The notes beneath the pieces are model-generated. The model was not told the origin of the DNA and searched no databases. It saw only the letters and a list, made by a program, of their open reading frames with translations. This document shows, one piece after another, positions 45,074 through 63,453 of a stretch of 64,000 nt of DNA. Made by a program: the position numbers and the translations under genes. This DNA comes from Nitrospirota bacterium (lineage in GTDB: Bacteria > Nitrospirota > Nitrospiria > 2-01-FULL-66-17), in the NCBI GenBank assembly GCA_049325335.1, contig JBMOMC010000044.1:64001-128000 (forward strand), written 5' to 3'. The first letter of the stretch is position 1; the number at the start of each line of letters is the position of its first letter.

Positions 45074-45607
45074 ATGTCGCAAGCAAAGAGTAGACGACAT
45101 AACGAGGTGCACCCCGGCGAGTTTGAGATGCACACCCGGGTCGGCAGCCGGCTGATCGGCCAGCGGATCATCGAGCACATCCGTGATGTCCTGGGCGTGG
45201 GGTTTAAGGAGTTCATCGAGGCTCAGTGCATGTTCTTCCTGTCGACCGCGGACGACGAGGGCCGCCTCGACTGCAACTATCGAGGCGGCCCTCCCGGGTT
45301 CGTTCGGGTGGTCGACGACCGCACGCTCCTGTTTCCGGACTACAACGGAAACGGCTCGTTCATGAGCCTGGGCAACCTCGTGGTGAACCCGAATGTCGGG
45401 ATGCTATTCATCGATTTCGAACGGCAACGGAGAATCCGCGTGAACGGTCGCGCCGAGATCCTCGACGACCCGGAACTGGTCTCGCAATTTCCCGGAGCGG
45501 AACGCATCGTCAGAGTCACGGTGGAGCAGGCGTTCCCCAACTGCTCGCGCTACATCCCTCGGATGGTCCGCGTCGACCCGCCACCCGAGGACTGGCCTAC
45601 GCCATGA
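45074..45607 (+). CDS. Pyridoxamine 5'-phosphate oxidase family (FMN-binding) protein
   Basis: FFLSTAD..G..DC.YRGG.PGFV, FPDYNGN, SLGNL..NP.VG.LFIDF, FPNC.RYI. Confidence 0.88.
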   Translation: MSQAKSRRHNEVHPGEFEMHTRVGSRLIGQRIIEHIRDVLGVGFKEFIEAQCMFFLSTADDEGRLDCNYRGGPPGFVRVVDDRTLLFPDYNGNGSFMSLGNLVVNPNVGMLFIDFERQRRIRVNGRAEILDDPELVSQFPGAERIVRVTVEQAFPNCSRYIPRMVRVDPPPEDWPTP

Positions 45608-46426
45608 AGTACGCCAACCTCGGATGCACTGGCTTGAAGGTGAGCCGTCTGGCGCTCGGGACTATGAACTTCGGCCCAAAGACGAGCGAGGACGAAAGCC
45701 ACGCGATCCTCGATCGCGCTATCGAGATGGGGATCAACCTGGTCGATACCGCCGACATCTACGGATACCGCAGGGCCCGGGGCACGGGCGCACGATGGAC
45801 CGAGGAAATTATCGGCCGCTGGCTCGCGCACGAGAGCGGGCAGCGTGAGCGGATCGTGTTGGTGACCGAGGTGTTTAGCCGGATCGGTGACGGCGAGAAC
45901 GATCACGGGCTTTCGGCCTCCCACATCCGACGCGCATGCGAGGACAGCCACCGGCCAACAGGTTGCCTCCCAGCGACACCTCCTGGGACTGGCCGGCGAG
46001 CAGAGCGTGTACAACCTCGGCAACCGAGCCATCGAGTCGGAAGTCATCCCAGTCTGTCGTCATTACGGTCTGGGATTGCTGGCATGGAGCCCATTGGCGG
46101 CCGGGCTCTTGGCGGGAGCGGCGAACCCGGCGGAACAGGGACGACGAGCCGCTGCACATGTCCGCGAGCAGGTGGATCGTCGAAGGGATCAAGTCATACG
46201 CTACGAGGCCCTGTGCGCCGAGATGGGCGAGACCGCCGCGACGGTGGCGCTCGCGTGGGTGCTCGCCAATCCCACGGTCACGGCCGCGATCATCGGCCCC
46301 CGCACCCCCCAACAGCTCGACGCGAGCCGTCGGGCGCTCGATCTTCCATTGAGCGATGACGTGCGTCGCCGGCTCGACGCGATCTGGCCCGGTCCCGGGG
46401 AAGCGCCGGAAGGGTACGCGTGGTGA
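45604..46426 (+). pseudogene. Aldo/keto reductase pseudogene (internal deletion plus frameshift near 45950)
   Basis: N-half (LG.TGLKVSRL.LGTM, DTADIY) stops at RRACEDS; C-half (Q..YNL, WSPLA.G, ALAWVL, IIGPRT) is in another frame; catalytic ATK reads VTE. Confidence 0.85.
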
Positions 46427-52100: not shown

Positions 52101-52508
52101 ATGGGAACGATGCACATGGCGGGGACCAGGATCGAACGCCTGCTGTTCATCTACAACGCGGACTCCGGCACATGGGGCGCGTTCGTGGACAGCGCCAAAA
52201 AGCTTCTGATGATCAACGGTTGCGCCCTGTGCAGCATCACACACGGGCTGGCCGGCGAGCGGTCGGAGTGGAAAGACTGCAAGGAGGAATTGGGGGTGCC
52301 GATCGACTACGTGCATCGGGACGAGCTGACTTCGCAGCTCAAGGCATTGGTCGGCGACGCGCTCCCCTGCATCGTGGCCCAGACCCGTTCCGGACCGATC
52401 CTCTTGGTGCGGCCGGAAGTCCTGGAGCGTTGTCGGGGCAGCGTCGGCGAGTTGAAGGGCAAGATTCTGTATTACGCCGGGTTGAAAGACCTGGAGCTCG
52501 CCGCATGA
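52101..52508 (+). CDS. Conserved hypothetical protein (CxxC, thioredoxin-like)
   Basis: GGAGGAG RBS; IYNADSG, CALCSITHG....EWK, HRDE, LPC. Confidence 0.75.
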   Translation: MGTMHMAGTRIERLLFIYNADSGTWGAFVDSAKKLLMINGCALCSITHGLAGERSEWKDCKEELGVPIDYVHRDELTSQLKALVGDALPCIVAQTRSGPILLVRPEVLERCRGSVGELKGKILYYAGLKDLELAA

Positions 52509-52589
52509 CACGGGGTTCTTGATAGTGCTGGAGCACGCAGCAAGAGAGGAGGATCATGAATGACCACTCGACACCCAAGGAGAACTGGC

Positions 52590-53090
52590 ATGAACACGAC
52601 TCGATTTTCCGTTGCCGCCCTGTTGCTGGCCGTCGGTCTCGCGTCTCCCTTCGCCCACGCCGAGATGATGGACAAGGGCATGATGCAGGACAAGGGCATG
52701 ATGCAAGACAAGAAAATGATGGGCGGAGAGATGACCGGCATGTTGATGGGCGCCAAAGATCACCATGCGAGCGGGACCGTGTCCCTCACCAAGGATATGG
52801 GCGGTCACACTCTGTTGCGCGTGGAGAATCTGAAGGTTGACAAGGTGCCTGACGGCCGCGTGTACCTGGCCAAAGATGGAGACTACACAAGCGGCGTGGA
52901 GCTTGGGAAGCTCACGCAATTCTCCGGCACGGTACAGTACGCGATCCCAGCCACCGTCGATCCCGCTGACTACAACAGCGTGGTGATCTGGTGCAAGAAG
53001 TTCAACGTGGAAATCGGCCGGGCCATGTTCGACGCAGATGGAATGACGGCGGACGACCACATGCAGGACAAGGGCATGATGAAGCAGTAG
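52590..53090 (+). CDS. DM13 domain periplasmic protein with Met-rich MQDKGM repeats
   Basis: Signal peptide; HHASG, PD..VYL, Y.SVVIWC..F.V..G.A; 18-nt tandem repeats. Confidence 0.85.
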   Translation: MNTTRFSVAALLLAVGLASPFAHAEMMDKGMMQDKGMMQDKKMMGGEMTGMLMGAKDHHASGTVSLTKDMGGHTLLRVENLKVDKVPDGRVYLAKDGDYTSGVELGKLTQFSGTVQYAIPATVDPADYNSVVIWCKKFNVEIGRAMFDADGMTADDHMQDKGMMKQ

Positions 53091-53200
53091 ACTGATCAAC
53101 ACGGCTCGTGCATGGCTGTACCACCATACTCACCGTGGCGAGCGGTCACGCGTCGCCGGGAAACGTCGTGGGTGGCCGGCGGCATAGCGGAAGGACCTGG

Positions 53201-54028
53201 ATGCGGCGTCCCAGATTGGTGCTGACGATTCTCGTTCCCCTCCTTCTGGCGTCGGGGGAAGTTCATGGCGCACCGAGGGCCGAGCGTTGGACCTTCTGGG
53301 ATGCCTCGCGGTCAGACAGCGCGGTACCGGTCGATCACACGGCGTGGGATCGATTCTTGGCATCCTACCTGATATCCGAACATCCGAGCGGGATCAACCG
53401 TGTGCGGTACGCCGACGTCACCACGGCCGATCGAAAGGGCCTCAAGGCCTACCTGGCTCAACTCCAAGCGGTCAAAGTGCGGAGGTTAAACCGAACGGAG
53501 CAAAAGGCCTACTGGATCAACCTCTACAACGCCCTGACCGTCGACGTGATGCTTGATCACATTCCGGTGGCAAGCATCATGGAGGTCAACATCTCCCCGG
53601 GCTTGCTGAGTCGCGGACCGTGGGGGAAGAAGCTGGTTGCAGTCGAGGGCCAGGACCTGGCGCTTGACGACATCGAGCACCGGATCCTCCGGCCGATCTG
53701 GCAGGACCCGCGCGTGCACTACGCTCTGAACTGCGCAAGCCTCGGATGCCCCAACCTCCAGCCCAAGGCGTTCACCGCGGAGAACACCGAACTGATGCTC
53801 GATCAGGCTGCGCAGGAGTACACCAACCACCCGCGCGGCGTCACCGTCAAGAACGGCCGGATCGTCGTGTCGAGCATCTACGTCTGGTTTCAGGACGACT
53901 TCGGGGGCACCGACGCAGGTGTGCTGGCGCACATCCGCCGTTACGCGGACGATCGGCTTCGACGGAAACTCGAGCGCATCACGCGGATCTCCGATCACGC
54001 GTACGACTGGCGCATCAACAGCCCCTAA
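53201..54028 (+). CDS. DUF547 domain protein
   Basis: DH..WD, AYWINLYNA.T, LDDIEH.ILR, DPRVHYALNCAS.GCP.L, SIY.WF..DFG. Confidence 0.92.
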   Translation: MRRPRLVLTILVPLLLASGEVHGAPRAERWTFWDASRSDSAVPVDHTAWDRFLASYLISEHPSGINRVRYADVTTADRKGLKAYLAQLQAVKVRRLNRTEQKAYWINLYNALTVDVMLDHIPVASIMEVNISPGLLSRGPWGKKLVAVEGQDLALDDIEHRILRPIWQDPRVHYALNCASLGCPNLQPKAFTAENTELMLDQAAQEYTNHPRGVTVKNGRIVVSSIYVWFQDDFGGTDAGVLAHIRRYADDRLRRKLERITRISDHAYDWRINSP

Positions 54029-54146
54029 TTTCAATCGCAATCGCGCGAGCGTGTGGTCGTTCGATCGTCCCCGTATGCTGCGCGACCGCGTCGCCGGACG
54101 GGGTATTGCAATCCTCGCGATTTTCGCCATACTTGAGCCCGCTGCC

Positions 54147-55634
54147 ATGGAATGGCTCGGACCTTTTCAGAGTCGCCGCCGGGAGGGATCCCGGCGCGAC
54201 ACATCGCTGACCACCCGTCTCGTTGGATTGATCGCCGTGGTCGTCGTGGCGACCCTCTCGCTGACCACGTGGCGGATCTACGTGGATCGGAACCGGTCGC
54301 TCGAAGACGACCTCGGGCAACGACTCTTGAGCATCGTGCAGACCGCGGCCTTGATGATCGACGGCGCCGCACACGAGGAGATCGCCGCTCCAGAAGATGC
54401 GACGATTCCCGAATTCCTCGAACTCCGTTCGCGCCTTCGGCTGGTCCAATCGGCCAACGGCCTGAACTCGTCCATCTACACGCTGCGGCGCCTCGGCAAC
54501 GCGACCGAGTTCGTGGTCATGACCGATGAGATGCCCTATATCGGCAACCGGTACCAGCTTCGCCGGGAAATGCTCCCCGTGTTCGAACAGGGTCGTTCGA
54601 CGTATACCCGTCTCTACGTGGATGATCACGGCGAGTGGATCTCGGCGTATGCGCCCATTCGCGACGCCACGGGGCATGTCGTCGGCCTGCTGGATCTCGA
54701 TTACCCGGCGGACACGTTTCAAACGGCATCGCGCGCCTACCGGAACCGATTGCTCGCGTTTTCCGCGTTCTCGCTGCTCATCGCGGGAATCTTGGGCGTC
54801 ATGTTCGCACGTTCCGTGGCAAGGCCGGTCCGTTCCCTCACCAACACCATGGCCCGCGTCATCGAGACCGACAATCTGGATGTGACGGTGCAACCTACCG
54901 GAACCATCCGCGAGATGAATGACCTCTCCCGCACGTTCAACATCTTGACCCGATCCCTTCAGCACTCGCGGGAGAAGGTTCGCACCACCCAAATCGTCAC
55001 GATCGGCAAACTTGCCTCGCTCGCCGAGAAACGCGATCCGGAAACGGGCGAACATCTCCTTCGAATGGCCGACTACACTAAGATCCTGGCCCGGCAGCTC
55101 CATCGCACCGATCCGTACCAGGACACGATTACGGAAGCCTGGATCGACGCGATCTATGAAGCCGCTCCCCTGCATGACATTGGAAAAGTCGCCATTATTG
55201 ACCGGGTCCTCCTCAAACCCGGGAAGCTGACCGATGAGGAATTCGCAATCATGAAAACTCACTCCGGTATCGGAGCCGCCGTGCTGGAGGGCGTGGACTT
55301 CCTGGACATCGCGAGCCAAATCGCCTGGAGCCACCACGAGAAATGGGACGGCACCGGCTATCCTCGGGGACTTGCCGGAACCGCCATTCCCTTGCCCGCA
55401 CGGATTGTCGCGCTGGCCGATGTCTACGATGCGTTGACGTCTCGTCGCGTCTACAAAGATGCGATGACCCACGAGGCGGCCCGACGCATCATTCTCGACG
55501 GACGCGGCAAACACTTCGCCCCGGACGTGGTTGAGGCGTTCGTCGACGTCGAACACGAATTCCTCCCGGTTCGCGAGCAATATGCGGATCTGAGCGCTCA
55601 GCCAAAGCACGAGCCGTACGACCGTGCCGCATAG
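54147..55634 (+). CDS. Membrane HD-GYP c-di-GMP phosphodiesterase (periplasmic sensor plus HAMP)
   Basis: Two TM helices, D..GEWISAYAPI, ETGEH, LHDIGK, HHEKWDGTGYP, ADVYDAL; start uncertain. Confidence 0.92.
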   Translation: MEWLGPFQSRRREGSRRDTSLTTRLVGLIAVVVVATLSLTTWRIYVDRNRSLEDDLGQRLLSIVQTAALMIDGAAHEEIAAPEDATIPEFLELRSRLRLVQSANGLNSSIYTLRRLGNATEFVVMTDEMPYIGNRYQLRREMLPVFEQGRSTYTRLYVDDHGEWISAYAPIRDATGHVVGLLDLDYPADTFQTASRAYRNRLLAFSAFSLLIAGILGVMFARSVARPVRSLTNTMARVIETDNLDVTVQPTGTIREMNDLSRTFNILTRSLQHSREKVRTTQIVTIGKLASLAEKRDPETGEHLLRMADYTKILARQLHRTDPYQDTITEAWIDAIYEAAPLHDIGKVAIIDRVLLKPGKLTDEEFAIMKTHSGIGAAVLEGVDFLDIASQIAWSHHEKWDGTGYPRGLAGTAIPLPARIVALADVYDALTSRRVYKDAMTHEAARRIILDGRGKHFAPDVVEAFVDVEHEFLPVREQYADLSAQPKHEPYDRAA

Positions 55635-56064
55635 CCGAAACCGACCGCAACGTGTCCGGACGAGCGATCACACCACCGGTTGCCGGCCGTGGATTCCCGC
55701 CGTTGGACTGCTCGCGGCACTTGTGCTCTCCCCGTTTGACACAGCCCTGGCTTCGGGAACGTTCGTTCCACCGCCGATCCCGCAAAACTTCAAGGACATC
55801 CCGATCAACGAAAAAATCGCGATTGGTGACGCGCTGTTTCATGGCAAGCCGAACAGCATGACTGGGCCGCTGCCGGGCAAGCCGTGTATCGAGTGCCACA
55901 TGGGGGACGCGCGCCTCAAACGCAAGCGACTGATCGAAATTCGAGACCATTTGGAAGAAGCCATCGCCAAGGAGCACCTCCTCCGCTACGGCGTTCCAGG
56001 AGACGAGGTGACCATCAAATGCCTGTACTACTACCTCTATTCGCGCTGGAGGTTGCAGCGGTGA
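55624..56064 (+). CDS. Small exported c-type cytochrome
   Basis: Signal peptide, IG.ALF.G, CIECH. Confidence 0.75.
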   Translation: MPHSRNRPQRVRTSDHTTGCRPWIPAVGLLAALVLSPFDTALASGTFVPPPIPQNFKDIPINEKIAIGDALFHGKPNSMTGPLPGKPCIECHMGDARLKRKRLIEIRDHLEEAIAKEHLLRYGVPGDEVTIKCLYYYLYSRWRLQR

Positions 56065-56885
56065 GGCGCCCCGCGCTGGGCGCAGCGCTGGGGCTGATCG
56101 TCATCGCCATGGCCTCCCCCGCATGGGCCGGACCCTGGACCGTGGCCGAAGGCGAAGCCGTGGTCTCGATGACCTACATCCAGACCGAGTTCGACCGCTT
56201 CTACAATGTCGACAGGGAACGGCGGACCCTGCCCGGGCCGATCCGGCACCGCGACGCGGTCCTCACCTTGACGTATGGGTTTATCGAAGACTGGGACGCG
56301 GCCATTCAGGTCAGTCGATACGACGCAGAGCGATTGTTTCCCGGCAACGAGGCGGCGCAATCAGGATTGGGCGACAGCCGGTTTGGCATCAAGCACCTCG
56401 TCTACCACGGCGCAATCGATGTAGCGGCCCAAGCGGGCATCAAGCTGGCTGGCCGATACGATGCTGACGTCATCCACTCACCCGGAGACGGCCAGACCGA
56501 TTTCGAGGCTCGCGTCCTGGGGGGCAAGTTTTGGGATCGCGCGTTCGTGGATCTCGAAGCCGCATACCGCCTTCGCCTCGGGCCGGTCTCTGACGAGTAT
56601 GAGATCTTGCTCGATGCCGGGTACGCGATCACCTCCTGGCTCCACGGTCGCCTGTTTTCACGGCTGGTGGACGCGCGAACCGGTGTGGGCTCCACCGATG
56701 ACCCTAATGTGGAATTGCGGTTGACCGAGGAAGACACCCTCTCGCTCGGGGGGGCGATCTCCCTTCGGCTGCTGTCGGGGCTGGAACTGACGCTGCAGTA
56801 CACCACGGTGGTCGCTGGTCGCAACACCCCGATCAGGCCCGACCTTGGTGTGAGCGTGGCGTACAGCTTTGACTTCTTTCTGTAA
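56061..56885 (+). CDS. Outer-membrane beta-barrel / transporter-family protein
   Basis: GTG overlapping previous stop; signal peptide AWA; GLGD, terminal YSFDFFL. Confidence 0.7.
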   Translation: MRRPALGAALGLIVIAMASPAWAGPWTVAEGEAVVSMTYIQTEFDRFYNVDRERRTLPGPIRHRDAVLTLTYGFIEDWDAAIQVSRYDAERLFPGNEAAQSGLGDSRFGIKHLVYHGAIDVAAQAGIKLAGRYDADVIHSPGDGQTDFEARVLGGKFWDRAFVDLEAAYRLRLGPVSDEYEILLDAGYAITSWLHGRLFSRLVDARTGVGSTDDPNVELRLTEEDTLSLGGAISLRLLSGLELTLQYTTVVAGRNTPIRPDLGVSVAYSFDFFL

Positions 56886-56892
56886 GCATCCA

Positions 56893-58212
56893 ATGGCGCT
56901 GGATCGGTTCCTCATCGGCGCCGGGCTCGGGCTCCTCGCTCTCTTTGCCGTGCCTGTGATGATTCCTGACTACCCGCGCGCGGTCGTCCCGTTTCTGGGC
57001 GTGTATGGCGCCGCCTCGGTGGTGTGGCTCGCCGCGGTATGGCGCGTGATGCGCGCGGACCACATCGGCCCCCGAACCCTCACTTTGGTCGTGGTCTTTG
57101 CGCTCTTGTTTCGCGGCGTGGTCCTCCCGCAAGCCTCGATCCTCGACGATGACCTCTACCGGTACGTGTGGGATGGCCGCATGACGTGGCACGGGGTCAA
57201 CCCCTATCGTTCTGCCCCAAACGATGACGCATTGTCCGGCTATCGAGATCCCCTGATCTACCCGCACATCAACTTCCCATACGTCCCGTCCATCTACCCT
57301 CCGTTGACCCAGCTCGTGTTCGCATCCGTGGTCGGCCTCTTCGGGGAAACCCTGATCGCGATGAAGCTCGCTTGGACCGTGTTCGATGTTCTGCTCATCG
57401 CGGCTGCCATCGCCCTGCTGCGCGCCGTGAACCTTAATCCCGCGCGGGTGATTGTCTACGCGTGGGCGCCGCTCGCGGTCAAAGAGGTCGCGGGGTCAGG
57501 GCACATGGACGCCTTCCCCGTGTTGCTGACACTCCTCGCCGTATTGTGGGCGGCGCGCAGACCCGTGGTCAGCTCGATCGCCTTGGGTGCGGCCATCGCC
57601 GCCAAGCTGTACCCGATCCTGCTCGTGCCGGTGTTCCTGCGGCAACTCCGCGGCCGCAGCCTGCTCATTCCTACTGTCGTGCTGATCGCCTGCGCGCCGT
57701 TTGCTTCGGTGCCGGCCAACCAAATGTTGCAGGGCCTCCGCATCTACGGCGAGTATTGGATGTTTAACCCCGGCGTGTTCGACCTGCTGCAACGGACACT
57801 CTCACTCATCACCACGCACGGCGTCCTCACAGCCAAGGTCCTCGCGGCCGCCACGGTAATCGCGATCGCGCTGTGGCGGGTCGGACACGGCGCCGACTCG
57901 GTCCGCGACCTGGCCGCGTCCGTGGTCTGGATCCTGGGGTGCACGCTCCTGTTGGCGCCGACCGCGGACCCGTGGTACTTGTTGTGGGTCCTGCCGTTTC
58001 TGTGCGTGCACCCCAATCCCGGGCTGCTTGCGTGGACAGGACTCGCGGTGCTGAGCTACGGCTACTACCATGCCGGAACGGACATCGCATGGCTGAGACT
58101 CATCGAGTACGCACCGGTGCTGATCCTGCTTGGATGGTCGTGGCTGCGCAGTCGTTGGTCCCGAGGAGCCATCCCGGGGCAGGCGGTCTGGACCGCTCGC
58201 ACCTCACCGTGA
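56893..58212 (+). CDS. Polytopic GT-C glycosyltransferase (GT87/DUF2029-like)
   Basis: DDDLYRY.WDG...G.NPY..P, SIYPP, YAW.PL..E..GSGH.D, KLYP, PWY.LW. Confidence 0.85.
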   Translation: MALDRFLIGAGLGLLALFAVPVMIPDYPRAVVPFLGVYGAASVVWLAAVWRVMRADHIGPRTLTLVVVFALLFRGVVLPQASILDDDLYRYVWDGRMTWHGVNPYRSAPNDDALSGYRDPLIYPHINFPYVPSIYPPLTQLVFASVVGLFGETLIAMKLAWTVFDVLLIAAAIALLRAVNLNPARVIVYAWAPLAVKEVAGSGHMDAFPVLLTLLAVLWAARRPVVSSIALGAAIAAKLYPILLVPVFLRQLRGRSLLIPTVVLIACAPFASVPANQMLQGLRIYGEYWMFNPGVFDLLQRTLSLITTHGVLTAKVLAAATVIAIALWRVGHGADSVRDLAASVVWILGCTLLLAPTADPWYLLWVLPFLCVHPNPGLLAWTGLAVLSYGYYHAGTDIAWLRLIEYAPVLILLGWSWLRSRWSRGAIPGQAVWTARTSP

Positions 58213-58928
58213 CGCGCGACGCGCCCGCAGCACCCCGCCGCCCCCGTATCTCGGTGATCGTCCCGGTCCGCAACGACGCAACCGCGCTGCAATCGTGTCT
58301 GGGCTCGCTGGCGGCCTCCCCGTCGCCGAACCCGATCGAACTCATCGTGGTAGACGGACAGAGCTCAGATCGTTCGCTGGAGATCGCGGTTCGATTCGGC
58401 GCGCGAGGCTTGCGTGCGCCCATGGTCGGTCGGAGCGCGCAGATGCACTGCGGCGCCCAACAGGCAACCGGCGACATCCTGGTGTTCCTGCACGCCGACA
58501 CCGTCCTCCCCGCAGGCTGGGTCGACCGCATCGAACAGGCGTTTTGGCTGAGTGCGACACCGCCGGCGGCCGCCGCATTCGACGTGGCGTTCGATTCCAG
58601 CCGGATGGTGTTCAAAGCCCTCTCGGCCCTGGCCAACCTCCGCAGCCGTCTCACCCGCCTGCCCCACGGGGACCAGGCGCTCATTGTCTCGCGGCAGACG
58701 TACATGTCTGCTGGCGGGTTCCCCAACGTACCGCTGATGGAAGAGTACCTGTTCATCCCCAAGCTGAAGCAATTCGGTCGCATCGCCCAGTTCCCGGAGC
58801 GAGTCGTCACCTCATCCCGGCGATACGCCCGCGACGGCGCGATCCGCACCACGCTCAAAAAGGTGGGGTTGATCGTGCTGTTCTACGTCGGGGTGCCGCC
58901 GGCACGGCTGGCTCGCTGGTATTGGTAA
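58209..58928 (+). CDS. GT2 glycosyltransferase, TIGR04283-like (rSAM/arsenosugar-cluster associated)
   Basis: SVIVP..N, VVDG.S.D, GR..QM..GA..A.GD.L.FLHAD, GDQ, GGFP..PLME, TS.RRY. Confidence 0.88.
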   Translation: MTRDAPAAPRRPRISVIVPVRNDATALQSCLGSLAASPSPNPIELIVVDGQSSDRSLEIAVRFGARGLRAPMVGRSAQMHCGAQQATGDILVFLHADTVLPAGWVDRIEQAFWLSATPPAAAAFDVAFDSSRMVFKALSALANLRSRLTRLPHGDQALIVSRQTYMSAGGFPNVPLMEEYLFIPKLKQFGRIAQFPERVVTSSRRYARDGAIRTTLKKVGLIVLFYVGVPPARLARWYW

Positions 58929-59038
58929 CGTTCATCGAATCGTCATACAGCAGTCATCAGGCCTACATGTCCAGCGCGTATGGTCCTTCCTGTTGGGCAG
59001 GCAGTCTGCCCGCTACCACCCTCAACAGGAGGATTTCG

Positions 59039-59710
59039 ATGCACACACCATGGCGTTTGACAGTGGCGGCAGGTCTGATCATAATGGCGAGCGGCCTCTC
59101 CGCTCTCCCGGCGTACGCGGGCGACGACGACGGCCGCCGCTACGCGGTGACCATCACCAACCTGACTCGCGGACAGGTGCTGACCCCGCCGGTCGTGATC
59201 GTGCACAATCGGCAGTTCACCCTGTTCACCCCAGGAGAGCCCGCGCGTCCCGAGTTGGCCCGACTCGCGGAAGACGGCATGACCCAACCGTTGCTCGACC
59301 TGCTCGGCACCGAGCACGGCGTGTACCAAACGCAGGTGGGTAGCGTGATTCCTCCCGGTGCGTCAACTACCGTTGAAATCGAGATCTCCGGTCCGTTCCG
59401 GCTCCTGACCGCTGCCGGCATGCTTGCGTCCACCAATGACGGGTTCTATGCGGTCGAGGACATCAAGGTGTCCGAAAAGGGCAGCATGGAAGTTGACGCG
59501 GATGCGTACGATGCGGGCAGCGAGGCCAACAACGAGTCGTGCGCCTTTATCCCCGGCCCGCCGTGCGGCCACCCTGGCGTTCGCGACACGGTTGGAGCCG
59601 AGGGCTTCGTGCATATCCACGCCGGAATTCACGGTCTCGCGGATCTGGTTCCCGCGATGCACGACTGGCGGAACCCGGTGGCACAGGTCACGATCGAGCG
59701 AATCCGATGA
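59039..59710 (+). CDS. Spondin_N domain exported protein
   Basis: Y.VTITNLT.GQ..TP, LAEDG, ML..TNDGF, YDAGSE.N, VHIH.G, W.NPVA; GGAGG RBS. Confidence 0.88.
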   Translation: MHTPWRLTVAAGLIIMASGLSALPAYAGDDDGRRYAVTITNLTRGQVLTPPVVIVHNRQFTLFTPGEPARPELARLAEDGMTQPLLDLLGTEHGVYQTQVGSVIPPGASTTVEIEISGPFRLLTAAGMLASTNDGFYAVEDIKVSEKGSMEVDADAYDAGSEANNESCAFIPGPPCGHPGVRDTVGAEGFVHIHAGIHGLADLVPAMHDWRNPVAQVTIERIR

Positions 59711-59747
59711 CGAGAGTTCGTGGGTACGGCGCCGGGACCATCGATCG

Positions 59748-59849
59748 TTGACATACCCGCGCATGCACGGTAGATTCGGCTTTCGGTTCGCTCGGCCGAA
59801 TCTCTCAGAAACAAGCGGCCGGGACGCGGGTGCGTCCCGGCCGCTTGTT
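59748..59849 (+). promoter_or_regulatory. Promoter TTGACA-N17-TAGATT with operator-like inverted repeat and 18-bp leader hairpin
   Basis: AGATTCGGC-N14-GCCGAATCT (59772-59803); perfect stem 59810-59827 / 59832-59849. Confidence 0.7.
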
Positions 59850-59875
59850 GTGCTAACCACGACCAGGGAGGCGGT

Positions 59876-62335
59876 ATGAATCTGACGCACGAGATGGTCT
59901 TGCACGCTCCACCTCGCGAAACATTGACTCAAAACGGGGTCCGCGTGTTGCTCGACCCGGCGGGGCCGAACTGGATCGGCACCGACGAGCGCGGCCGGCG
60001 AATTCTGGATCTCTTTGATGGGGCGCACACGTTCGGCCAGGTGGTGCGCGCCTACGCGGCGGAGGCCAAGCTCGACGTGGTCGCAGCCTGGCAGCACGTG
60101 GACACGCTCGCGCGCGATGCGATCCGCCGCGGCATGCTGACGGACCGGCCGATCACGCGCCCGCCCTACCTGGGGCGCGCGGCGCATCTGGGGCCGCGGC
60201 GTTTGACCGAGTTGTGGCTGCACACCAACAATTCGTGCAACCTCGCGTGCAGCCACTGCCTGGTGTCTTCCGGACCCGACGGCGACAAGGGCCTTCCCAC
60301 CGACGTGCTCCTGCGCGTGATCGCCGACGCGAAAGCCCTGGGCGTGCGCCGGTTCTTCTTCACCGGTGGCGAGCCCTTCCTCAGAAAGGACATCCTCGCG
60401 CTGATCGATGCGGCGTTGGAGGACCCCAAAGCGGAACTGGCGATCCTGACCAACGGCCTCCTGTTCACCCCAAGCCGGATCGAGGAGCTTTGCCAACGCG
60501 ATTCCGCGCGGCTCAAGATCCAGATCAGTCTCGACGGCTCCACGCCCAAGACCAACGATCCCCTCCGAGGGAAGGGCAGCTTCCAGCGTATTGTCGACGG
60601 GATCCGCGCCGCGATCCGAGCCAGCCTCTCGGTCACGGTCAGCACCGTGATCACCGAAGCCAACGCCGACGATGTACCCGAGGTTACGCGTCTGGTCGCC
60701 AGGCTTGGCGGCGCCACGCATCACTTGCTTTGGCTGCACAAACGCGGCCGCGCGGATGAGCACGGCGTGGATCGCACCCCGTCGGTAGAACGCGTCATCG
60801 AGGTCGTTCGCCGCTGCCGCGAGGTTGGGCAATCCGTCGGCGTGATGGTCGATAACCACGAGGCGGTCAAGGCACGACTCCGGTATCCCGCAGGCACCAA
60901 GCGCGACCTCGCCAGCGCCGGAATCTCCAGCCTCTGTCTCTATTCAGACGGGCAGGTCTACCCCTCGGCCGCGATGGCCAATGTTCCCGACCTCGCCTGC
61001 GGGTCAATCCTGGATCAATCTCTTCAGGACATGTGGTTGACCAGCTCCGTCGCCACCGAGTTCGCATCGGCGACTGTTGAGGACAAGGTGATCTGCCGGA
61101 CCTGCCCAATCAAGTTTCTCTGCGGAGGGGGCGACATCGAGCACGCGTATTTCTACGGTGGCTCGATCATGGCGCACGACCCCTACTGCGAGCTGCACCA
61201 GGCCATGATCGCCGACGCGCTGCTCGATCTGACCGAGGAACGCAAAACCCTCGTGACCAACCGCAAGTCGGGGTTTTCCGCGCCGATCATCTACACGGGC
61301 ATGGGCGAGGCCGCGGTCACGTGCGCAACAGACGAGACGCCCGGCGAAGTGCTCACCAGCCACTCGGAGTGCGTGCTGACGTTCGACCTGGACGCCCCGC
61401 GCAAGGTCGTCCGCGAGTTTTACGGCAACGCGGCCGAGATGCCGCAGGAAGAGTTGTGCTGCCCGGTGCAACCGAACCCCGAAGACCTCGCCCACATCCC
61501 CCGGGAGGTCATCGAGCGCTTCTATGGCTGCGGCTCGCCGGTGGGCGCGGCCGGGATTCAACCCGGCGAGACGACCCTGGATCTGGGCAGCGGCGCGGGC
61601 ATCGACGTGTTCATCGCCGCGAAGAAGGTGGGCCCCACGGGCCGGGCAGTCGGCGTGGACATGACGCCCCAGATGCTCGCGGTGGCGCGCGACGCGCAGA
61701 AGGACGTGGCCGCTGCGCTGGGCTACGACGTCGTCGAGTTCCGGGAGGGATTTCTCGAACAGATCCCGGCCGAGACCCAGTCTATTGATCTCGTGACGTC
61801 CAACTGCGTGATCAACCTCTCACCCGACAAGCCCCGCGTGTTCGCGGAGATGTGGCGGGTGCTGAGGGACCACGGCCGGATCGTGATTGCTGACATCGTC
61901 GCGGATCAGGAAGTCCCGCCGCACCAACGCAAAGACCCGCGCCTCTGGGGCGAGTGCATCAGCGGCGCGCTGACCGAAGAGGAGTTCCTGGCTGCGCTCG
62001 AGCGCGCAGGGTTCTACGGCCTGCAGGTCTTCAAGAAAACATTCTGGAAAGAGGTCGAGGGGTTCAAGTTTTACTCGGTCACAGTCCGCGGCTTTAAGTT
62101 CGAGAAGACCTCGGGTTGCATCTATGCGGGGCAAACCGCGACGTACACCGGACCGTTCAAAGGCGTGAGCGACGAAGAGGGCCACTGGTTCCCGCGCAAC
62201 GTGGCGATCGACGTCTGCACCGACACCGCCGCCAAACTGTCGCGCGCGCCCTACGCGGGCTTGTTCGTCCTCACCGGAGTCGGGGGAGACATCGCGCCGA
62301 TGGGCGGCTGCAATCCCGCGTCGGATTGCTGCTGA
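59876..62335 (+). CDS. RRE-like / radical SAM / SPASM / arsenite methyltransferase (ArsM-like) fusion
   Basis: [17 protein letters not shown]...[35 protein letters not shown]; ends in DCC. Confidence 0.88.
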
Positions 62336-63453
62336 TGGCCGACGCGCTCTTGATCGCCGCGGTGGTGCTTTGGCTCGCCTACGCCAACGGCGCAAACGAC
62401 AACTTCAAGGGCGTGGCCACGCTCTTCGGTTGCGGCGCCAGCGATTACCGCAGCGCGCTCCAGTGGGCGACCGTCGCAACCCTCGCCGGTTCGCTCAGCT
62501 CCGTCGCGATCGGGGCGGGGCTTGTCGCGAAGTTTTCTGGCAAGGGCCTGGTGTCGGATGCCGTCCTTGCCGACCCGAGTTTTGTCTCCGCGGTAGCCTT
62601 CGCCGCCGTCGCCACAGTGTTGCTCGCCACGCGCCTCGGGTACCCGATTTCCACCACTCACGCGCTCGTCGGCGGACTCGTCGGCGCGGGCGTCGCGGGG
62701 AACGGATGGGGAGGCGTGAACCTCGCGGCGCTCGGCACCACATTCGTCGCGCCGCTGTTTCTCGCACCGCTGACTGCGGTGACCTTGACCGCACTCGCCT
62801 ACTGGCTCCTTCACCGGGCTCGACTGTCGTTCGGGGTTGCGCGTGAAACGTGCGTGTGCGTGGGAGGACACGTTCCAGTGGTCAGAGTGCACCCTGGTCG
62901 CCGCCCGCTCGCGGCGGCCGCTGTTGCAATGCCAACCGTCACGATCGCGTCGTCCCAAGAGTGCTTGCAGCGTTACGGCGGTCGCGTGGCGGGGGTGAGC
63001 CTTCAGACCCTCTTGGATCGGTTGCACTATCTGAGCGCGGGGGCCGTGTGCTTTGCCCGCGGCCTCAACGACACACCAAAAGTCGTGGCGCTCCTGGTCG
63101 CCGCGCAAGCCCTGCACGTGCCGTTTGCGGTCGCGATCGTGGCCGTCGCCATGGCGCTGGGCGGGTTACTCAGCGGGCGGCGCGTGGCCGAGACCATGAG
63201 CCACAAGATCACGGCCATGAATCACGGCCAAGGCTTGACCGCCAACCTCGCCACCGCGGCGCTCGTGATTTGGGCGTCGCGCTGGGGCCTGCCCGTCTCA
63301 ACCACCCACGTCTCGTGCGGCGCCCTGTTTGGCATCGGTGCCATCACCGGTCACGCCCATTGGCGCGCCATCGCGTCGATTGCGCTCGCGTGGATCACCA
63401 CGCTTCCCCTTGCCGCGTTGCTGGCTGCCGCAGCATATCTCTCCCTCGGCTGA
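62335..63453 (+). CDS. PiT (PHO4) family inorganic anion transporter
   Basis: NGAND, P.STTH twice, RGLND.PK; ATG overlaps upstream TGA. Confidence 0.9.
   Translation: MADALLIAAVVLWLAYANGANDNFKGVATLFGCGASDYRSALQWATVATLAGSLSSVAIGAGLVAKFSGKGLVSDAVLADPSFVSAVAFAAVATVLLATRLGYPISTTHALVGGLVGAGVAGNGWGGVNLAALGTTFVAPLFLAPLTAVTLTALAYWLLHRARLSFGVARETCVCVGGHVPVVRVHPGRRPLAAAAVAMPTVTIASSQECLQRYGGRVAGVSLQTLLDRLHYLSAGAVCFARGLNDTPKVVALLVAAQALHVPFAVAIVAVAMALGGLLSGRRVAETMSHKITAMNHGQGLTANLATAALVIWASRWGLPVSTTHVSCGALFGIGAITGHAHWRAIASIALAWITTLPLAALLAAAAYLSLG

Follow-up and report, generated by a model that had tools for sequence, protein, structure and literature searches.

Radical S-adenosylmethionine (SAM) enzymes that form carbon-arsenic (C-As) bonds are represented by ArsS and ArsL in the accessible parts of the published descriptions (PMC12159101; bioRxiv 10.64898/2026.04.29.721666). 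ArsS is described as adenosylating the trivalent dimethylarsenical DMAs(III) to DDMAA, 5'-deoxy-5'-dimethylarsinoyl-adenosine (PMC13598754) and as working with SsArsM in Synechocystis (PMC8552651), the arsinothricin cluster is given as ArsL, ArsM and ArsQ (PMC8552651), and ArsL is reported to bind arsenic through C-terminal cysteines (bioRxiv 10.64898/2026.04.29.721666). Here we analyzed a 64,000-nucleotide stretch (the window; positions 64001-128000 of contig C44) of a Nitrospirota genome of 3.25 Mb that is rated 99% complete (G000). It contains an 819-aa protein (59876..62335, + strand) in which a radical SAM module with a RiPP (peptide made ribosomally and then modified post-translationally) recognition element (RRE) and a SPASM domain is fused to an ArsM arsenic methyltransferase. 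The fusion gene is followed by a PiT-family carrier gene (62335..63453, + strand; PF01384, 208.5 bits) whose start overlaps its stop. No paper on this fusion was found in the literature searched, which covered few subscription journals and no supplements, where a mention could lie.

The cluster around these two genes represents a genuine variant of the arsenosugar-type pathway, in which the replacement enzyme is uncharacterised; its distribution among genomes suggests a second, undescribed bacterial way of attaching arsenic to sugar. Judging from sequence, the fusion-PiT pair is probably a mobile counterpart of the arsM-arsS-pit module in which one protein makes an arsenosugar precursor.

Architecture of the fusion and its carrier

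Profile matches (Pfam/NCBIfam), alignment and a structure model give the same layout for the fusion: an RRE/PqqD-like domain (residues 24-88), a radical SAM domain with the CxxxCxxC motif at 121/125/128, SPASM, a Cys-bearing linker (C483, C499), a long-form ArsM domain (~510-800), and a terminal CC. PF04055 scored 95.9 bits, and PF05402 (20.5) and PF13186 (21.4) were both slightly below cut-off. The combination of RRE, CxxxCxxC and SPASM is thus present, and both the AlphaFold model (pLDDT 86, pTM 0.85) and the fold search agree with it. Structural matches were headed by algal ArsM and human AS3MT, which filled Foldseek ranks 1-12 (30-36% identity, class I SAM methyltransferase fold), and SkfB, CteB, SuiB and anSME came after them. 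The ArsM half matched CrArsM in phmmer (E 5e-43) and is 43-46% identical to the ArsM encoded beside arsS in three Nitrospira-type loci, two of them continuing into a PiT gene of the Cys-loop type. It scored below the NCBIfam ArsM cut-offs (NF008823, 231 against 263; NF038099 for arsenosugar ArsM, 155 against 400), and a fused or divergent N-terminus may depress these scores.

The initial annotation had proposed that a radical SAM enzyme other than ArsS is fused to ArsM, and the sequence comparison bore this out. Against the ArsS model TIGR04167, the fusion scored 50.1 bits (cut-off 300), over model positions 5-141 only, and its radical SAM half shares 23% identity over 166 aa with the genome's own ArsS. 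DUF3641 (PF12345), present in that ArsS, was not found on the fusion in the Pfam scan; the ArsL model NF040542 was not among the best 25 of 100 families for the fusion, and the RCCLKC motif is absent from its sequence.

A search with residues 1-500 as query yielded 953 proteins from 8000 scored candidates, and we aligned 113 (at least 790 aa) of the best 120 of them. CxxxCxxC, GGEP, C499, C528, C529, C552, C644 and C694 are invariant in 113/113, so the four-cysteine set of ArsM (C528/529, C552, C644, C694) is present throughout. Three of these ArsM cysteines align with chain cysteines of CmArsM and the first with CrArsM; the catalytic cysteines of ArsM are numbered C44/72/174/224. A CxxC-x5-C...C set is found in 94-99% of the 113 homologs and the terminal CC in 98%. 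In SPASM, the first auxiliary cluster site is altered, with S364 and D420 replacing cysteines that stand-alone and short-ArsM members have, and the remodelled residues S364, D420, E422 and H423 are invariant. The second auxiliary site is kept in the window's fusion, and its cysteine set is also lost in some fusion branches. Selenocysteine was considered for this family and rejected: the 113 aligned proteins contain no U, and a TGA flagged in genome G020 is a normal stop.

The PqqD match and the fold likeness to SkfB, CteB, SuiB and PqqE would also fit a peptide or protein maturase of the RiPP type, with ArsM as a tailoring or resistance add-on. We consider this highly improbable, since the 408 small open reading frames (ORFs) in the vicinity of 112 fusion genes include no recurring precursor-peptide family (a search that could miss very short or divergent peptides) and the neighbors show no repeated peptidase or exporter family; moreover, the RRE is shortened in stand-alone members, and the exclusion between fusion and arsS described below would be left unexplained.

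The stand-alone members are radical SAM proteins of 481 aa that end in HCxCVL. In two loci (L225:3538-6414 and L227:7737-10622), such a gene overlaps TIGR04282 and is followed by GDPD, forming a minimal three-gene unit. GDPD would suit glycerophosphate-bearing arsenosugars.

The PiT carrier has a conserved CxC...C loop (C173, C175 and C210; window 62851-62964). Among 40 aligned fusion-linked PiTs, 97% have the three cysteines, and the pattern is found in 117/118 of the closest homologs. The presence of three cysteines suggests, at the level of sequence, that the loop may bind As(III). The carrier scored higher with the CysP sulfate permease model (78.7) than with PitA (54.7), both far below cut-off. 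The PiT gene lies at most 300 bp from the fusion in 30/46 loci, and the same Cys-loop type directly follows arsS in two canonical operons.

Neighborhoods and distribution of the fusion and arsS

We compared 114 fusion loci (79 metagenome loci, 7 genome loci and 28 further regions) with 19 canonical arsS loci hand-picked from match lists, counting neighbors by tblastn. L008, which shares a contig with L201, and three DUF5714-type loci were omitted; the 114 include some duplicates and 54 loci shorter than 12 kb, and the counts are neither independent nor complete. PiT was detected in 49 fusion loci, VTT and MerA-like genes in 29 each, TIGR04282-like genes in 27, TIGR04283-like genes in 15, GT-C and AglJ-like glycosyltransferase family 2 (GT2) genes in 11 each, and the low-molecular-weight phosphatase (LMWP) type of ArsC in 9; a separate arsS was found by tblastn in 0/114. 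The canonical arsS loci contained TIGR04282-like (12), TIGR04283-like (10), VTT (10), MerA-like (5), ArsM (3) and PiT (2) genes, and two of them read arsM-(arsR)-arsS-pit. In a profile scan of 40 neighbors, 20 loci had a TIGR04282 match above cut-off and 13 a TIGR04283 match above cut-off. The fusion therefore has the genomic role of ArsS, as a partner of ArsM, TIGR04282/04283 and a Cys-loop PiT.

Bufferin-type MNIO genes were also seen near the fusion in five loci (L128, L131, L132, L137 and L200), and the one at L132:8015-9270 exceeded the NF050167 cut-off. A distant short-ArsM clade, with both auxiliary cluster motifs intact, directly precedes a B12-binding radical SAM gene (L212:9763-13685, L219:9823-13722, L224:12236-13720). 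It possibly represents a separate organoarsenical pathway; most such genomes also carry arsS.

To analyze the distribution of the fusion family, we used 401 genomes of the window's own phylum, 133 genomes of its class other than the window's, and 251 genomes of a second phylum (Desulfobacterota, to which the Desulfomonile record G401 belongs). All of these genome counts are inflated by relatedness and by incomplete assemblies and overstate independence, and Fisher tests, for reasons of relatedness, overstate significance. Within the class, 12 genomes have only the fusion, 119 only arsS, none both and 2 neither; by taxonomic family, seven are fusion-only, six have arsS without the fusion, and the window's own family is mixed. 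In the own phylum, the family occurs in 30 genomes, arsS in 255 and both in 9, and TIGR04282 is present in 20/21 family-positive arsS-negative genomes vs 15/125 with neither. The second phylum contains the family in 23 genomes, arsS in 91 and TIGR04282 in 130, the last of these in 89/91 arsS genomes, 19/20 genomes with only the family and 22/140 with neither. Among its arsS-negative genomes, the family was detected in 19/41 with TIGR04282 and 1/119 without. Genomes with the stand-alone version lack arsS in 5/5 cases (two are only 65-79% complete), and no fusion was found in five ArsM-bearing genomes from other phyla. The arsS-negative carriers are spread over several separate clades of the fusion gene tree, a quick tree without bootstrap, in which a regular expression wrongly flagged meta142 as matching at the first auxiliary site.

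During these searches, ArsS matches were noticed in frames of 666-704 aa (G624:C1:38316, G536:C12:11412, G648:C1:726373, G560:C22:70825 and G566:C4:45582), which may be canonical ArsS fused to another domain such as ArsM.

Several observations weigh against an equivalent of arsM-arsS-pit. The window's genome itself has an intact canonical arsS on contig C1 (417 bits, cut-off 300) alongside the fusion. The own phylum has 12 distant family members, 11 from the short-ArsM clade next to the B12 radical SAM gene and one of the DUF5714 type; arsS also occurs with 8/12 of these, and in the second phylum 3/23 family genomes have it as well. A further 22/130 TIGR04282-positive genomes of the second phylum have neither enzyme. 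The prediction that most of these hide a distant family member failed: a profile search of the 22 recovered one clear and one possible member (0/22 in controls). Genome G171 has arsS and neither TIGR04282 nor TIGR04283. Finally, since the radical SAM half is so remote from ArsS and lacks DUF3641, the exclusion is evidence of a common role and not of an identical product.

Alternatively, only the ArsM half might matter, for methylation and detoxification, the radical SAM half being vestigial or a scaffold and the canonical ArsS with a transferase pair on contig C43 accounting for any arsenosugar. The dispersal of a full canonical set in the genome and the loss of auxiliary-cluster cysteines in several branches would suit such a view, which is nonetheless very unlikely given that CxxxCxxC, GGEP and C499 never vary and that stand-alone radical SAM versions without ArsM still overlap TIGR04282. 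In addition, 17 arsS-negative fusion genomes of the close type retain TIGR04283 in 17/17 and TIGR04282 in 16/17 cases.

The cluster in its genome and genus

The initial annotation had described the region from DUF547 to PiT as a single cluster of eight co-oriented genes that makes a methylarsenic compound and passes it through a lipid carrier to the envelope. All eight genes are present on the + strand according to ORFs and Pfam/NCBIfam matches (cytochrome and barrel by motif and Atlas), and a ninth, between DUF547 and the cytochrome, had been missed. Of the eight junctions, said in many cases to be stop/start overlaps, four overlap (-11, -4, -4 and -1), and the genes are 7 bp apart at one and 110-165 bp apart at three.

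A DM13-domain gene (52590..53090, +; PF10517, 63.2 bits) lies upstream of that range; it occurs in 4/114 fusion loci, and its synteny with the fusion is limited to close relatives. DUF547 (53201..54028, +; PF04784, 93.5 bits) encodes an accessory protein with a signal-like N-terminus and is found in 15/114 fusion loci vs 0/19 sampled arsS loci. The missed gene encodes a membrane HAMP and HD-GYP protein of the cyclic di-GMP phosphodiesterase type (54147..55634, +; PF13487, 108.6 bits; PF00672, 25.1 bits). It corresponds in position to a 77% identical gene of the congener G231, occurs in 1/114 fusion loci, and is probably a passenger.

The next two genes have no Pfam/NCBIfam match. The first encodes a small CxxCH protein, a putative c-type cytochrome (55624..56064, +), with an Atlas lead to DUF1924/cytochrome c (153-154 shared features, under the tool's guide of 170); it is 78% identical in G231 and, occurring in 0/114 fusion loci, a lineage-specific passenger. 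The second is a putative outer-membrane beta-barrel (56061..56885, +), with Atlas neighbors at 0.96-0.97 including PF13557/PF13505 (Phenol_MetA_deg/OMP) clusters; it is 67% identical in G231 and also present in 0/114 fusion loci. Both labels derive solely from the CxxCH motif and language-model neighbors.

Two glycosyltransferases follow, a GT-C-fold (GT87-like) membrane protein (56893..58212, +; PF09594, 35.2 bits, cut-off 25) and TIGR04283 (58209..58928, +; 224.4 bits, cut-off 182), the NCBIfam family for arsenosugar biosynthesis. This TIGR04283 is the genome's second copy, 42% identical to the one adjoining TIGR04282 on C43. The secreted spondin-domain protein (59039..59710, +; NF038123, 143.6 bits, cut-off 40) is a passenger found in 2/114 fusion loci, both close relatives. 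Before the fusion-PiT pair, a sigma-70-like match (59748..59776, +; 10/12 consensus) is a weak promoter lead, the scan being not above chance (4 sites vs 2.0 +/- 1.5 in shuffles). Elsewhere in the window, an aldo/keto-reductase-like gene (45550-46426) seems split over two frames (45226-46359 and 45887-46426, from the ORF list only).

The assembly of this region was checked with a contig of another assembler, which spans window 52175-61613 with zero differences and even depth; the run used is perhaps the source sample, hence this checks the assembly only. The cluster's G+C content at third codon positions (0.72-0.84) is inside the genome range, so base composition does not point to a recent arrival. 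Among named records, those closest to the fusion (87-88% identical) are from Nitrospirota.

As the initial annotation stated, the window has no ArsS or TIGR04282 gene; our search placed both elsewhere in the genome. One of the refuting findings that the annotation itself had listed, a canonical arsS elsewhere, thus applies to this genome: a genome-wide search located the arsS on C1, a canonical arsM on C7 (355.6 bits, cut-off 263) and the TIGR04283/TIGR04282 pair on C43; C7 also holds a VTT and MerA-like pair. With a canonical arsM, a canonical arsS and the transferase pair also in this genome, the window's cluster is best seen as an eroded, partly redundant copy. Neither Acr3 (PF01758) nor LMWP-type ArsC was found in the genome, which has two PF03960 matches (ArsB was not searched for); in this genome the cluster therefore does not belong to a standard ars resistance operon. 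A second ArsM-like gene (G000:C1:27874 region, L220:7830-11516) is nearest to ArsM/AhpD selenoprotein models (234.6 bits, below cut-off), and two more methyltransferase-like genes come after it.

Comparison of congeners showed how the locus may have changed. G000 and G171 carry arsS flanked by marC and a PNPOx-like gene. At this site G108 retains a 23-aa C-terminal ArsS remnant and G231 nothing; both carry the fusion, and these two congeners have lost arsS from the conserved locus. G108, the 87% relative, has DM13-spondin-fusion-PiT only, without the genes from DUF547 to TIGR04283. G231 has the same gene order as the window, including HD-GYP, cytochrome and barrel (67-79%), and an extra ~6.1 kb after DUF547 (L240) that encodes another barrel, a membrane GT2 of 485 aa, another GT-C, VTT and a MerA-like flavoprotein. 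The corresponding junction in the window (54029..54146), where DNA matches stop at DUF547 and restart at HD-GYP, lies within one contig of the second assembler with no differences, and the shorter upstream block is most simply explained by deletion. G231 also has three fusion copies, two of them in further fusion-PiT pairs in other settings. Given that the content of G108 and G231 differs and that the further pairs of G231 stand elsewhere, the mobile core consists of fusion and PiT, the upstream block being an accessory set at the level of the genus. The proposal of one 10-kb cluster is thus not upheld, and the expected co-occurrence in other genomes holds for TIGR04282/04283, VTT, MerA-like and PiT genes; cytochrome, barrel, spondin and HD-GYP almost never adjoin the fusion outside the window's genus.

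Proposed pathway and comparison with known systems

From the domain content, conserved cysteines, neighborhoods and distribution observed above, we infer each chemical step as follows. An arsenic oxyanion would enter, or a trivalent arsenical be handled, via the cysteine-loop PiT. The C-terminal ArsM domain would methylate As(III) twice with SAM to give DMAs(III), which may then be handed on to cysteines of the linker (C499, which is invariant, together with C483/C354) adjoining the radical SAM domain. There, a 5'-deoxyadenosyl radical would add to arsenic, yielding the same dimethylarsinoyl-adenosine precursor as ArsS. Conversion of this precursor into arsenoribosides or arsenosugar lipids could then fall to TIGR04283 and to TIGR04282, which is encoded on another contig.

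The fusion might instead make a C-As product other than that of ArsS, involving a different SAM fragment or a mono-methyl arsenical. The same transferases, joined in some lineages by a polyprenol-linked GT2/GT-C pair, would build this product into a new envelope arseno-glycolipid. This is the closest to the initial proposal. In its favor, the fusion's radical SAM scaffold is unrelated to that of ArsS and has a remodelled SPASM site, the window's genome keeps both enzymes, and G231 has its three copies. GT-C, AglJ-like GT2 and DUF547 occur together in 9-11 fusion loci, and DUF547 and GT-C are found in 0/19 sampled arsS loci. A polyprenyl-phosphate-type GT2 stands beside GT-C in ~10 related loci. 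We nevertheless regard a different product as unlikely, because an identical product best accounts for the near-exclusion with arsS and for its loss in congeners that bear the fusion, and because 103/114 fusion loci, as well as the 87% relative, have no GT-C. The loci with GT-C include duplicates and may stem from few lineages. For this genome in particular, the window's cluster has no polyprenyl-phosphate-type GT2 as partner for GT-C, the 485-aa GT2 of G231 has no ortholog (best 27%), and generic AglJ-like GT2s elsewhere in the genome reach up to 35%. Thus, of the initial proposal, the variant pathway stands, the fusion being where ArsM and ArsS normally stand; transfer via a lipid carrier to the envelope has support at family level only and is, in this genome, a weakly supported minority possibility. 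Among the same loci, L137 (7171-10002) has a single 943-aa ORF combining GT-C, AglJ-like GT2 and TIGR04282, and L132:1152-2510 is a natural fusion of AglJ-like GT2 and TIGR04282.

A bolder version, which we hold to be distinctly unlikely, is a third class of C-As bond-forming radical SAM enzyme derived from a peptide maturase. Its cysteine linker would dock at the place of the precursor peptide and carry arsenic from ArsM into the radical site, and a product unlike that of ArsS would be moved by the three-cysteine PiT and built by polyprenol-linked GT-C into an envelope arseno-glycolipid. It would explain why the window's genome keeps both the fusion and arsS.

If the fusion enzyme is indeed an unrelated and widespread replacement of ArsS, surveys based on arsS would miss many arsenosugar producers among uncultured bacteria, considering the occurrence of the family in 30/401 and 23/251 genomes of the two phyla. 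With both activities on one chain, channelling of DMAs(III) would be directly testable, and the stand-alone version beside TIGR04282 and GDPD would offer a minimal set for the later arsenosugar steps.

Residues 1-450 of the fusion resemble the peptide maturases SkfB (6efn), CteB (5wgg), SuiB (5v1q) and PqqE (6c8v) in domain order and fold. Unlike RRE-radical SAM-SPASM maturases, the fusion has replaced first auxiliary ligands, no precursor peptide that we could find, a fused ArsM and arsenic-type neighbors. The DUF5714 fusions (PF18978) of Desulfomonile and relatives, likewise uncharacterised as far as the literature searched shows, share the RRE-radical SAM-ArsM order at ~32% identity, the linker cysteine and the TIGR04282 association; they differ in their length (~1050 aa), the added DUF5714 domain and the lack of auxiliary-cluster motifs. 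With ArsL, ArsM and ArsQ, the locus has in common a compact radical SAM/ArsM/transporter unit and cysteines ending the radical SAM module, whereas it lacks RCCLKC, its ArsM half scores 204-209 with NF040538 (cut-off 500), and its transporter is PiT, not the GntP-like ArsQ. Compared with the ArsM and ArsS pathway, the fusion is one polypeptide with a radical SAM half of the RRE-SPASM type and no DUF3641, but it combines, as that pathway does, a long-form ArsM having four conserved cysteines with a radical SAM partner, and it shares the neighbors TIGR04282/04283, VTT, MerA-like and Cys-loop PiT.

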